A DNA stretch of 64,000 nt from an uncultured Rhodospirillales bacterium. GTDB taxonomy: Bacteria > Pseudomonadota > Alphaproteobacteria > RF32 > CAG-239. The stretch is taken from assembly GCA_902763185.1 (NCBI GenBank), contig CACWQT010000009.1, positions 442 to 64,441 on the forward strand, given 5' to 3'. The translations under genes and the position numbers were made by a program. Shown piece after piece: positions 41,767-45,109 of this stretch. The notes beneath the pieces are model-generated. The model did no database searches. It was given only the letters and a program-made list of their open reading frames with translations, and was not told where the DNA came from. Each line of letters starts with the position of its first letter. The stretch's first letter is position 1.

Positions 41767-42057
41767 TTACTTGCGCATAAAGTCAACGTGTATCGGCATA
41801 TCCGATACAGGGTCAAACTGAACATCTTTGCAAACAACTTTCTCGCTCTTTTTATCTAAAGCGATAGTGATTACAGATTTGTAGAAATCAGCCAAATCTA
41901 AAGCCTTTTCCAACTCTACCGGATGCAAACTGATGTTTACAGCATCTTTTTTGCCGCCATAAATAACAGCAGGGATACGGCCTTCTCTACGACATTGACG
42001 AGCTGCCCCCTTACCTGCTTTTTCACGCAAAACTGCATTAAATGTAATTTCTGACAT
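41767..42057 (-). CDS. rplY: 50S ribosomal protein L25 (short, single-domain)
   Basis: GKGAAR..RR.G.IPAVIYG, VQFDPV..PIHVDF. Confidence 0.95.
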   Translation of the reverse strand: MSEITFNAVLREKAGKGAARQCRREGRIPAVIYGGKKDAVNISLHPVELEKALDLADFYKSVITIALDKKSEKVVCKDVQFDPVSDMPIHVDFMRK

Positions 42058-42123
42058 GTTTTTATTCCTTATTTCAAATTAAAAAACCGCCGATAACCTC
42101 CAGGGGTGCTATCAGCGGATAAA

Positions 42124-42152
42124 CTTATAGGTCTTGTTTTAATAAGAGTCAA
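42124..42152 (-). promoter_or_regulatory. Sigma70 promoter of rplY
   Basis: Minus strand TTGACT-N17-TATAAG. Confidence 0.65.
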
Positions 42153-42160
42153 GTTTTTAT

Positions 42161-42970
42161 TTAAGCATTTTTAGGGCTTTTTTGCACCTTTTGCTCATAG
42201 GCTTTTTTATCACGTAAAAAGCTTAGGCAAGAAAAAGGAATGCTTAGCGCATATAATGCGGTTAAAATACCTAATGTCAGCGAAGTTTGCGTAAATAAGA
42301 AATGTGCAACAATCGCAACAAAAACCAATAGTGGTATCACCATTGAAGGTTTAATTTTGGCTTTTTTAAGGGAAAGCGTCGGAATCCGACTGGTTTCCAA
42401 GTAAAATACGATGCACATCCAAATACTGCAAAAGACGTGAGTTCTTAAAAAGGGTTTGGTTTCGGCTAAGTCAAAGCCCAGCAATATCGGCATAATCACC
42501 ATGGCGGCGGCGGCAGGTGCGGGAACGCCGGTAAAATAATGTGACCAATATGGCGGAACGGTTTCATCTTCAAGCATGGTATTAAAGCGGGCTAAACGAA
42601 GGGCCATACCCATTGCAAAAAGCAGGCAGAAGAACCAACCGATTTTTTTCAAATCAAACAAGCACCATTGATACATCAGTATTGCGGGTGCTACGCCAAA
42701 GCTGATGAAATCGCTTAGAGAATCGAGTTCAGCGCCGAATTTTGATGAGGCTTTTAGCATACGTGCGACTCGGCCGTCAAGGCCGTCAAAAAGAGCCGCT
42801 AAAAAAATAAAGAGAACCGCTCTGGTCCAGTTTTCACTGATTGCGTACCGGATGGATGTCATTCCCGAACATAGCGCCAGCATGGTCACAATGTTGGGTA
42901 CAAGTTTACGAAAAGGCATTTCCGCAAACTTATCGGTAGAAAATTCTACCCCTAATTCTGTTTTTTTCAT
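42161..42970 (-). CDS. pssA: CDP-diacylglycerol--serine O-phosphatidyltransferase
   Basis: DGLDGRVAR...FGAELDSLSD, RLARFN, FTGVP. Start placed at MKKTELG. Confidence 0.92.
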   Translation of the reverse strand: MKKTELGVEFSTDKFAEMPFRKLVPNIVTMLALCSGMTSIRYAISENWTRAVLFIFLAALFDGLDGRVARMLKASSKFGAELDSLSDFISFGVAPAILMYQWCLFDLKKIGWFFCLLFAMGMALRLARFNTMLEDETVPPYWSHYFTGVPAPAAAAMVIMPILLGFDLAETKPFLRTHVFCSIWMCIVFYLETSRIPTLSLKKAKIKPSMVIPLLVFVAIVAHFLFTQTSLTLGILTALYALSIPFSCLSFLRDKKAYEQKVQKSPKNA

Positions 42971-43161
42971 CAAATTACCTTTCTTAAATAAGGCATATAC
43001 CGAAACGCAGTTTCTGCCGTATATGCCATTGTTTTTTAAGCTGTTAACGGTGCGCTGCACGGCGTTAACGGTTGAATTTTACTCAAGGCTTAAAAAAAAT
43101 ACAAGTTTTATGTTGCAATTATAATTTTTTGTTTGTATAAGGTTTTCTGTTGATTGATTTT

Positions 43162-43248
43162 GCGCTTGTGGCGGAACTGGTAGACGCTGCAGACTTAAAA
43201 TCTGTTGGGAGCAATCCCGTGCCGGTTCGATTCCGGCCTAGCGCACCA
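43162..43248 (+). tRNA. tRNA-Leu (anticodon TAA)
   Basis: 87-nt cloverleaf: GCGCTTG/CTAGCGC acceptor, GCAGA-CTTAAAA-TCTGT anticodon arm, long variable arm, GGTTCGA, encoded CCA. Confidence 0.96.
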
Positions 43249-43286
43249 ATAAAAAAACAGGGATTTATTCCCTGTTTTTTTATTGG
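43246..43286. terminator. Terminator hairpin after the tRNA
   Basis: Perfect 18-bp stem CCAATAAAAAAACAGGGA/TCCCTGTTTTTTTATTGG. Confidence 0.8.
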
Positions 43287-43645
43287 TAGGATAAACAGTA
43301 TATCGAAGCGGCACGGGTGCCGGTTCGAACCGTAGCTCGCAGGCGGATATCAGACGCCGATTGCCGAAAGACAAGCGAGCAAGGTCGGCGTTAAGAAAAC
43401 TTTTGAAGAAAGTTTTTAGTCATTCCGGCCTAGCGCACCAATAAAAAAAGAGAGCCGTTAAGGTTCTCTTTTTTTATTGGTATAATAGATTGATAAGCGA
43501 ATTGATACGGTGTTGGTTCGATTACCAGCGAAAGGCAGACGATGGTATGTCGGTCAGCGAAGCCGATGAGTGCCCTTGTGACGAAGTCACTCCGGTCTAA
43601 CGTATCAATAAAAAAACACGGTAAGAGGTATCTTACCGTGTTCTT
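43249..43645 (+). repeat. tRNA-linked tandem repeat array (units of 192 and 167 bp, plus a final hairpin)
   Basis: 28-bp exact repeat at 43230-43257 and 43422-43449, a degenerate third copy at 43589-43616, each followed by a hairpin. Confidence 0.88.
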
Positions 43646-43667
43646 GAATTAAAATGTCAAACTTCTT

Positions 43668-43997
43668 TTAGCTATTAACATTGTATGCATTAGTGAGCAT
43701 AGCCTCTCCTTCAATGTATTGGTTAATTGTCACTAAAAGGGCTTTGACACTATCATTCGGAACGATCTTGCAGATATCCATGGGTAAGGTTAAATTGTGC
43801 ATTCTCTGTAGCTCAATGAGGACGTTGGTTAATCGGATGTTACCCATGTTCAGATCACGAATAAAATCATAATTAAGCAACTGTTCATCAGAAGCGTCTT
43901 GCAGGTTTTTAGCTGCACAATCGTTCCCATTGTTGACATACATGATTGCATGTCGCAGGTCTTTAATAGTAATTGTTTGCTTCATCATAATATACAT
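43668..43997 (-). CDS. Acyl-carrier-protein-like protein lacking the conserved Ser
   Basis: FIRDLNMGNIRLTNVLIELQRMHNLTLP..SV..L aligns by eye with ACP F..DLGxDSL...E.E..F.I.IP...TV..L. Confidence 0.5.
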   Translation of the reverse strand: MYIMMKQTITIKDLRHAIMYVNNGNDCAAKNLQDASDEQLLNYDFIRDLNMGNIRLTNVLIELQRMHNLTLPMDICKIVPNDSVKALLVTINQYIEGEAMLTNAYNVNS

Positions 43998-44128
43998 TTT
44001 AATTTATAAAATCCGGTGGAAGTTATATCTGTTTATTTGTTCTGTCAAATCATTTTTTTTGATTTTGTTGCAAAATAATAAATATGGAGTAATATAATGA
44101 TGTATGACAAAAGCGAAAGATAAAGCTG

Positions 44129-45109
44129 TTGAGATATTTTAGATATTTAATTTTCATCTTAATGTGTTTAATGGGAAGGTCTAGTTATGCAGATAGCTAT
44201 CTCGTAAATACATCTGTGTTAAATTTGCGTACATGTGCCAGTATTAATTGTCGAATTAAGGGAAAATTATTGGCTGGAGATACGGTACAAGTTGAAGAGC
44301 AATATGATTCATGGTCTAAGGTTTCTACGAAATATGGAGCAGGATATGTAGTTTCTCGTTCTATTAAAATTAAAAATGGAAAGTATGTCGAGAATACATA
44401 TTTATTTTTGTTTTTGAGTGTTCTTGTTCTTTTATCTATTATCTTTTTTATATACAAGATTATAAAATATAAACAAGAATTGAAGAAAAATAAAGAATTG
44501 ATACAAACAGTTACAAGTCTTGATAGAGGTGAGCCAGCAGAATTGGATTTGATTTTAAAGTTATTGAAATCAGGTTTTTCTCCGAATTTTCTTTTTCATG
44601 ATTTATATGTAACTAAAAAAAATGGTAATTTTTCCCAAATAGATTTGGTTATGTTAACGGATGTGGGGCTTATTGTTTTTGAAGTTAAAGACTATAATGG
44701 TTGGATTTATGGAAGAGGAAATGAAAGTAAATGGACAAAAGTTTTAGCGTATGGTCGTAGTAAGTATAGATTTTATAATCCAATAATACAAAATCAGAAT
44801 CATATAGATGAATTAAAAAAGATAATAGAAGAAGATATACCTTTTTATTCTGTTATTGTTTTTTATGGAAATTGCAAATTAAAAGATGTTAGTTTTATTC
44901 CTAAAAGGACTTTTGTTACTAAAGGGTATAGTGTATTATATGCGTTAGATAGTATTTTTAGCGAAGCCAAAAAAATTGAATATACTGATAAAGATAGAAT
45001 CATTAAACTTTTATCTGATGCCGTTAATAAAGGTAATGATTTTAATGTATCGAGACAACATATCGATAATATTAGAGATATGTTGGGGACTGATAGGATA
45101 TTTCAATAA
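44129..45109 (+). CDS. Signal peptide-SH3b-TM-NERD nuclease domain protein
   Basis: LNLR...W.KV....GYV (SH3b), a hydrophobic TM, then QIDLV....GLIVFEVKDYNGWIYG and FYNPI.QN..H (NERD). Confidence 0.85.
   Translation: MRYFRYLIFILMCLMGRSSYADSYLVNTSVLNLRTCASINCRIKGKLLAGDTVQVEEQYDSWSKVSTKYGAGYVVSRSIKIKNGKYVENTYLFLFLSVLVLLSIIFFIYKIIKYKQELKKNKELIQTVTSLDRGEPAELDLILKLLKSGFSPNFLFHDLYVTKKNGNFSQIDLVMLTDVGLIVFEVKDYNGWIYGRGNESKWTKVLAYGRSKYRFYNPIIQNQNHIDELKKIIEEDIPFYSVIVFYGNCKLKDVSFIPKRTFVTKGYSVLYALDSIFSEAKKIEYTDKDRIIKLLSDAVNKGNDFNVSRQHIDNIRDMLGTDRIFQ

Follow-up and report, generated by a model that had tools for sequence, protein, structure and literature searches.

The closest described counterparts of the array reported here are the tRNA-linked repeats (TLRs), known in Escherichia coli since 1978 and without a known function according to the excerpted text of PMC8144298, which counts 22 copies at ten loci, all of them closing with 18-19 bp that repeat the 3' terminus of the tRNA or rRNA before them. 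TLRs are defined there by a place directly behind a tRNA or rRNA gene in the orientation of its operon, by one to five units per locus and by transcription together with that gene, followed by processing to a discrete RNA. Those of K-12 include the 178-bp tyrT repeats and the rtT RNA (Egan and Landy, 1978; Bosl and Kersten, 1991; Rudd, 1999; as cited in the excerpts of PMC8144298 and PMC3318445), and a claim linking rtT to the stringent response was later withdrawn (PMC8144298). The rRNA-linked TLRs are described as transcribed by terminator read-through and then processed, and among them RrA, RrB and RrF lie between the dual terminators of E. coli rrn operons, linked to 5S rRNA, and bind Hfq and CsrA in vitro via GGA motifs (PMC8144298). 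The upstream stable RNA is the source of their copied 3' end, which has been proposed to act as a processing guide, and a similar 18 bp is copied in these 5S rRNA-linked repeats although no T-loop is involved (PMC8144298). An origin for TLRs is proposed neither in the excerpts of PMC8144298 nor in the literature searched.

The units described here, like the TLRs of E. coli, stand behind a same-strand tRNA, one to several per locus and at many tRNA loci, and their last 18-19 nt correspond to the tRNA 3' end (19/19 in the tRNA-proximal unit 1 of the present array, decayed to 14/19 in the distal unit 2). The host is an uncultured gut alphaproteobacterium rather than an enterobacterium, and whereas RrA, RrB and RrF are linked to 5S rRNA, the units here are linked to tRNA. 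The window, that is, the whole stretch of 64,000 nucleotides that was analysed, contains on its plus strand the tRNA-Leu(taa) gene that anchors the array (43162-43248; ARAGORN; Rfam tRNA 55.1 bits; T-arm 43217-43235). A repeat search finds the tRNA 3' end three times, starting at 43230, 43422 and 43589 with a spacing of 192 and 167 bp, and the T-arm 5' half three times as well, at 43214, 43312 and 43505. Behind the tRNA, palindrome 1 (43245-43287) is a terminator-like hairpin with A7/T7 tracts, the 19-nt arms of which are 100% complementary and extend into ACCA. It is followed by the T-arm pair of unit 1 (43303-43328), detected by the repeat search and as a hairpin of the minimum-free-energy (MFE) structure, in which an inverted T-arm (43303-43314) faces the T-arm 5' half in direct copy, together with the T-loop as far as A58 (43317-43328); the inverted T-arm at 43302-43317 pairs to 94% with 43216-43231, and the pair contains one G-G mismatch, shared with 5/7 related units of other genera. 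The 93-nt insert X1 (43329-43421) is a diverged member of a structured-insert family, with helices P0, P1 and P2, an A/U-rich last hairpin and relatives in other genera, and unit 1 closes with direct repeat 1 (43422-43449), 28 nt that comprise an exact copy of the tRNA from A58 to CCA and ATAAAAAAA.

Unit 2 follows the same plan. Palindrome 2 (43437-43481), again terminator-like, is an inverted repeat with 20-nt arms at 95%, and is followed by a decayed inverted T-arm with the direct T-arm 5' half (43498-43520; direct-repeat copy 43505-43523, 79%), by insert X2 (43514-43588), a canonical family member by covariance model R1 and nhmmer with a three-way junction P0/P1/P2, P3 and a short P4, and by direct repeat 2 (43589-43616), a decayed copy of the tRNA 3' end that again continues into ATAAAAAAA. 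Palindrome 3 (43612-43645, minus strand) is a terminator-like site that ends the converging downstream gene, is conserved in the nearest species (G002) and forms the outer boundary of the array. The terminator scan called this minus-strand site alone, and palindromes 1 and 2 are terminator-like by eye only, because their A/T tracts pair into the stems. The sequence-only reading had described two units of 192 and 167 bp with a common architecture and T-arm pairs at 43303-43328 and 43498-43520, and its repeats, hairpins and coordinates are all correct. Its finer comparison of the two copies is likewise confirmed by the repeat search: the proximal copy of the tRNA 3' end matches at 30 of 31 positions, 28 of them exact from A58 (the last 19 nt of the tRNA and 9 further bases), and the distal copy matches at 14/19 over the tRNA part, all five differences being transitions. 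The stems of the three palindromes differ from one another, that of palindrome 2 being unlike palindrome 1 and resembling the tRNA-proximal hairpin of G002; unit 1 is therefore not a local duplicate.

The same layout recurs throughout the genome, an assembly of 1.58 Mb with 39.6% G+C and 40 tRNAs that is 100% complete by marker genes. (Its tmRNA gene, G000:C2:88126-88443, is marked by an ARAGORN asterisk, taken to denote a permuted gene, and has the tag ANDNFAPVAVAA, as in Alphaproteobacteria.) A copy of the tRNA's own last 20 nt lies within 1.2 kb downstream of 12 of the 40 tRNAs, as judged by a scan that allowed up to 5 mismatches and left out tRNA-Ala(ggc), whose match is the next tRNA gene. 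The trailers have a common order of tRNA, A/T-tract hairpin, short spacer, inverted T-arm, T-arm 5' half, insert and A58-to-CCA, and the T-arm 5' half ends within the T-loop at position 57/58. With an nhmmer profile of ten inserts, all 16 matches in the genome, one of them weak (E 0.75), fall behind same-strand tRNAs, at 11 tRNA genes with one or two units each, and this placement excludes chance. Other insert types occupy the same layout in Leu unit 1 and behind tRNA-Lys(ttt), tRNA-Thr(ggt) and tRNA-Phe. Behind tRNA-Phe (G000:C11:95957-96440, L039), in an array that has a run of N, stands another insert family, unrelated to the first, which is about 370 nt long and has a terminator of its own; it shares the inverted T-arm layout but is placed after T-loop position 60, and a related sequence lies behind tRNA-Ala(cgc) (G000:C26:2100-2690, L040). 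Further, a GTGCG-NNN-CGCAC hairpin and then ..CATAAT stand after the outermost 3'-end copy in several arrays (L033, Ser_tga; L035, Pro_cgg; L039, Phe; L061), and a related GGCAGCGCC hairpin occupies the loop between the T-arm copies of some units.

Model R1, built from 13 insert copies, matches 30/36 genomes of the genus. In a sample of the order, 143 of 151 genomes match, with 1,056 matches in total, 0 to 21 per genome and a highest copy density of 21 in 1.5 Mb; by rank, these comprise 142/149 genomes of the family, 19/20 genera and 0/1 of the sister family, and eight of the 151 genomes have no R1 match though at least 98% complete. Among 149 other families of the class, sampled as one genome per family, two match. 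One of the two is genuine, a unit of about 270 nt behind tRNA-Ser(gga) in a genome of another family (L118, G289), which starts with an inverted T-arm and has an X-like core near its end; this kind of unit therefore extends past the family, in a more complex form. The other, a weak match in G240, falls in a GC-rich stretch without a tRNA and is probably false. At 23 of 29 loci from the genus, the insert stands close behind a same-strand tRNA; another four loci are truncated at the end of a contig, and at the remaining two no tRNA is present within 1.5 kb. The flanks correspond in each case to the tRNA upstream, and the junction lies at the same place of the T-loop behind at least 15 different tRNA species. 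The architecture that the sequence-only reading had proposed to seek at other tRNAs and in other genomes is found at 11 tRNAs here and in 143/151 genomes.

The insert, which had been called structured on sight, bears the marks of a conserved fold. When 66 copies are aligned to R1, 86% of the cells of a 17-pair structure are paired and 14 of the 17 pairs show changes on both sides, with 127 such cells; 0/500 shuffles reach any of these measures and slid controls give at most 15 double-change cells against the 127, in an alignment that was fitted to P1-P3 and thus favours those helices. The structural covariation that the sequence-only reading had named as a test of its interpretation is in this way upheld. 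P0, P1 and P2 form a three-way junction that is followed by P3 and P4. Helix P0, which is absent from the model, has tandem G-A as its inner two pairs in most copies and Watson-Crick pairs in others (TC/GA, GC/GC, AT/AT), and its outer pair switches from G-C to A-U; in X1 this helix covaries by eye, with GCTCGC/GCGAGC against GTTCGC/GCGAAC. P4 is a covarying closing stem (GACC/GGTC, GATT/AATC, GACG/CGTC, GGC/GCC; alignment, by eye), and the AGTC at which both inserts end, earlier read as a motif, is instead its 3' strand. Nor are the two inserts unrelated, as had been thought: both follow the P0/P1/P2 plan, X2 matching R1 at 43514-43582 with 73.2 bits (nhmmer E 3.7e-18) and a unit-1-type copy scoring 18.9 bits. 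Pair 47-77 is G-U in 53/61 copies, and the fold therefore belongs to the tRNA-sense strand. An outer helix between the copied T-stem/acceptor strand and its upstream inverse is present in the MFE structure of 5/13 units (L049, L051, L058, L065, L073). Single-sequence folding gives z-scores that are not decisive: -2.8 for unit 1, on both strands, and -0.66 for unit 2, no better than shuffles. The decayed T-arm copies of unit 2 had been noted as still pairable with G.U; however, this is no evidence of selection, as most of the transitions in unit 2 are C to T on this strand, a one-strand bias by which G-U pairing is kept automatically.

Rfam has no family for the insert, and searches of positions 42000-45000 (E up to 10) and of two further loci (E up to 5) gave no match on the units. 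The possibility of a hammerhead or another small ribozyme of known type, raised by CTGATGAG and the GTC|A end, was considered and set aside: no Rfam hammerhead match was obtained, and CTGATGA occurs in some copies only, inside hairpin P2, whereas a hammerhead has CUGANGA and GAAA cores amid three stems and is cleaved after NUH. In both tandem tRNA-Leu(taa) units of another genome (L087, G105), a 24-nt A/T hairpin lies in the copied acceptor strand, between GGCCT and AGCGC, and is a second-order insertion within the repeat.

The likeness to the enterobacterial tyrT repeats, which had been drawn from their size and layout, proves to be closer than that, as the E. coli repeats have the same inner layout and a 19-nt 3' end. 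On the tRNA strand, the tyrT/tyrV repeat runs from an inverse of the T-stem/acceptor through a piece of inverted T-arm and the T-arm 5' half with T-loop to an insert and A58-to-CCA, and the last repeat of the lysT operon has the same order, with the terminator repeated after the unit (by eye). The sharing thus covers inverted T-arm, T-arm 5' half with T-loop, insert and A58-to-CCA, and the annotated end of the rttR RNA is exactly the copied CCA of the repeat. The outer helix of the Rfam RtT family also pairs the copied T-stem strand with its inverse, as here, and the inserts of both start alike, with GAC.AC...AGCGA.AG. RtT (RF00391) matches the tyrT/tyrV trailer four times (133-137 bits) and 16 places behind several tRNAs in K-12, 13 of them above the cut-off; on the units here (42000-45000, E up to 10, gathering threshold 45 bits) it has no match, so that common descent with the E. 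coli repeats is at most plausible. Conversely, of the 14 RtT places in those E. coli loci that were searched, R1 recovers eight, in the corresponding position and weakly (9-15 bits): four copies are at tyrT, three at serT and one at proK, with 0/6 in the lysT and valU loci, and the tyrT repeats align to R1 without hairpin P1. The architecture is shared with the E. coli TLRs and common descent of the inserts is plausible; the insert family is a new, very large family within the known TLR class. Copies per Mb are higher here than in E. coli, and some arrays here enclose small genes. Functional RNA from a tRNA trailer has a precedent in 3'ETS-leuZ, where leuZ is likewise a tRNA-Leu(UAA); unlike the units here, 3'ETS-leuZ is not known to repeat the tRNA 3' end, to be built of repeats or to resemble the insert. 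The name denotes a 3' external transcribed spacer RNA in the excerpts of PMC8144298.

Transcription of the array is hinted at by one metatranscriptome contig of 236 nt with 1 difference (43177-43412), which begins within the tRNA, crosses palindrome 1 and stops in X1, at the U-run of its last hairpin; coming from a single run, without ends or strand and with DNA carry-over possible, it hints at read-through. Run X7 has no cover at 43038-43176 and beyond 43412, where absence carries no weight. Further, an extended -10-like motif, TGGTATAAT, can be read on the unit 2 side at 43478-43486, with TGGTAGGAT as its unit 1 counterpart at 43284-43292, and tRNA-Leu(taa) units of other genera have conserved TGGTATGAT. 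In the window and at L084, L085, L088 and L095, TGGT, the mirror of ACCA, comes from the palindrome's right arm and together with a following ATGAT or ATAAT gives the extended -10-like motif; G002, whose remnant has no unit, keeps this combination as well. The idea that each unit has its own promoter was nevertheless rejected: the -10-like motif of the tRNA-Leu(taa) units was not seen at most other tRNAs, no promoter between hairpin and unit is consistent across tRNAs by eye, and a scan of the locus yields no full sigma-70 site. Expression would accordingly depend on read-through of strong-looking hairpins. The option of tRNA-mimic small RNAs, which the sequence-only reading had offered as its second choice, fits this contig together with what is known of E. 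coli TLRs (excerpts of PMC8144298).

Comparison with other strains and species makes the turnover of units visible. In all 19 relatives with a readable locus, the upstream gene and the tRNA are shared, and in 0/19 is the tRNA 3' end repeated behind the tRNA. G002, the nearest species (81% identity), retains by eye a palindrome-2-like hairpin, TGGTATGAT, a short remnant of the insert end and a decayed acceptor copy, with palindrome 3 and the same downstream gene next in line. In another study, a DNA contig carries unit 1 with 2 differences, skips 192 nt and resumes in palindrome 3, and its strain is therefore without unit 2; two further runs contain unit 1, and a joint from 43438 to 43926 in run X5, with only 24 letters on one side, was left unused. 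Unit number thus varies between strains, as the earlier reading had thought worth comparing; with the recurrence of the architecture and the structural covariation, all three tests that it had named for itself speak for it. Some part of unit 1 is matched in 24/201 genomes, with 0/23 matches among genomes of its own genus and 89, 87 and 84% identity in three other genera. These copies at 84-89% identity are always behind tRNA-Leu(taa), as are 7/9 of the loci that were checked, one of the seven having the same linker with the other insert type. Transfer of unit 1 between genera appears likely from these identities rather than proven, because a structured RNA under selection could retain the same 84-89%. 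Insert cores do not follow tRNA identity: the tRNA-Glu copies in this genome share 95-97% identity with one that stands behind tRNA-Pro(ggg) in a different species.

These comparisons demonstrate that units are gained, lost and exchanged as cassettes, the newer one adjoining the tRNA. The age gradient away from the tRNA that had been proposed is consistent with addition next to the tRNA; however, gene conversion of the nearest copy gives the same picture. A cassette-like layout is also seen in four arrays that enclose small genes between two units (L038, G000:C2:57677-58447; L032, C7:73759-75530; L035, C18:31823-32900; L037, C4:11003-11990), the enclosed open reading frames being a 100-aa lipoprotein-like one and others of 261 aa, 135 aa and 119 aa, the last with a signal peptide. 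The idea that they are parts of an autonomous element was dropped, since by eye none of these small frames has recombinase-like features.

Taken together, the data favour, with a probability of roughly 0.6, the view that the array behind tRNA-Leu is a two-unit TLR array and a read-through trailer RNA module; read-through trailer RNA is the most likely nature of the units. In this model, RNA polymerase would read through the hairpin behind tRNA-Leu, and the inverted T-arm would pair with the direct copy into a unit helix beyond which the acceptor 3' strand with CCA would remain as a tail resembling that of a tRNA, the structured insert branching from the T-arm helix at T-loop position 57/58. 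The tRNA maturation enzymes may then cut and trim the trailer where the tRNA 3' end is copied, such that the level of the resulting small RNA would follow tRNA transcription and the tRNA-like end may serve processing and stability. The repeated 3' ends may provide homology for unequal crossing-over and deletion, and tRNA and repeat could act as two homology arms for recombining the DNA of a relative, a route that may place new units beside the tRNA without a dedicated recombinase. Several observations count against the trailer-RNA model. Unit 2 is in decay and has a fold no more stable than those of shuffled sequences, and the eight near-complete genomes of 151 that have no copy show the RNA to be dispensable. 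The cores are unlinked to tRNA identity, so that a plain RNA gene needs gene conversion, and the model leaves unexplained how flanks specific for a new tRNA, the inverted copy included, are first acquired, for which reason an active mechanism of insertion at the T-loop keeps some, if low, probability.

Such a mechanism was the main proposal of the sequence-only reading and is, in our estimate, an unlikely alternative. It holds that the units are non-autonomous mobile inserts which enter T-loop position 57/58 site-specifically, as folded single-stranded DNA or as RNA, by means of an enzyme encoded elsewhere or in other strains, the copied tRNA parts being the integration footprint. The common T-loop junction behind at least 15 tRNA species is what such elements would leave, as are cores that do not track tRNA identity, the tRNA-Leu(taa) linker that comes with either insert type, the two internally deleted copies (Arg_cct, Pro_tgg) that retain both insert ends and the other insert families set in the same layout (Phe, Thr, Lys_ttt). 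Unit presence that differs between strains, nearest relatives of unit 1 in other genera and a copy number of 0 to 21 per genome, as for selfish repeats, agree with it as well. However, the claim of a dedicated mechanism at the T-loop finds no transposase, reverse transcriptase or HUH enzyme in the genome to carry it: this complete genome has no match to reverse transcriptase, IS110, Y1 HUH (PF01797), TnpB (PF07282) or rve, and none to Y2 HUH either, where the zero says little since the Y2 profile control matched in no genome. Tyrosine recombinases are represented in it by two Xer-like genes and by two integrases of islands, the latter beside other tRNAs, tRNA-Gly(ccc) and tRNA-Gln(ttg), and its one resolvase is not next to any tRNA gene; IS200/IS605 miniature elements, which have matching hairpins at either end, do not fit, as there is no Y1 or TnpB and the hairpin before the insert is tRNA-specific. 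In addition, an insert that jumps leaves the tRNA-specific sequence on both sides and the inverted copy unaccounted for, and the 18 bp copied in 5S rRNA-linked E. coli TLRs involve no T-loop (excerpts of PMC8144298).

A broader variant, which we rate as rather improbable, would see TLR modules as self-propagating cassettes of Alpha- and Gammaproteobacteria that use the 3' end of a stable RNA as target and homology arm, the split T-arm and inverted copy being the footprint of insertion at 57/58 by an unrecognised enzyme or by the folded insert itself. If this were true, arrays would grow beside the tRNA and, though lacking an integrase, could take up small genes in the manner of integrons. The arrays are indeed like integron arrays (attI/attC) in being polar, in having structured, covarying sites, in containing small genes at times and in keeping the newest unit beside the anchor; unlike integrons, they have no integron integrase beside them, are spread over many tRNAs and have tRNA-specific sites.

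A further alternative is that the repeats are functionless by-products of replication slippage or snap-back at the T-arm and terminator hairpins, in which a forward-inverted-forward triplication of the tRNA 3' end was later amplified through unequal crossing-over. The forward, inverted and forward order around the terminator loop and around the short loop between the T-arm copies would be expected from this, the repeat spans the whole terminator and spacer in many loci (L053, L059, L062, L068, L073), old copies decay with a C-to-T bias and some genomes carry none. We nonetheless hold this very unlikely, because it does not account for an insert whose sequence and covarying structure are kept in 19/20 genera, or for three hairpin stems that differ, unit 1 being no local duplicate.

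Decayed att scars of deleted integrase islands once present in tRNA-Leu are extremely improbable: tRNA 3' ends are classical integration sites and the genome has two such islands, but the attR of the tRNA-Gly(ccc) island consists of a T-stem-to-CCA repeat and integrase arm repeats, with no inverted T-arm and no insert, the units are not a 3' part-only repeat with integrase and arm sites, and one conserved structured insert stands behind 11 tRNAs here and in 143/151 genomes. As the sequence-only reading had noted, there is no integrase near the array, where no PF00589 match was found. The tRNA-Gly(ccc) island itself (G000:C8:3300-5260; G000:C10:23500-23830, L045) has its integrase gene directly behind the tRNA and GTGTGATGCA arm-type repeats at both ends, and its attR, which repeats the last part of the tRNA over 16-17 nt, is located on a different contig.

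The excerpted TLR description of PMC8144298 makes no mention of the T-arm 5' half, of the inverted copy that goes with it or of a junction at 57/58, features to which the present data point. Where E. coli gives 22 TLR copies, more than 1,000 are now available in 151 genomes of another class of bacteria, enough to derive a covarying structure; gain, loss and exchange of units between strains and genera can be seen, and cores are shown to move relative to tRNA-specific flanks. Many copies, visible turnover and moving cores together make the old puzzle of the TLRs testable, by comparative genomics and by the mapping of RNA ends.
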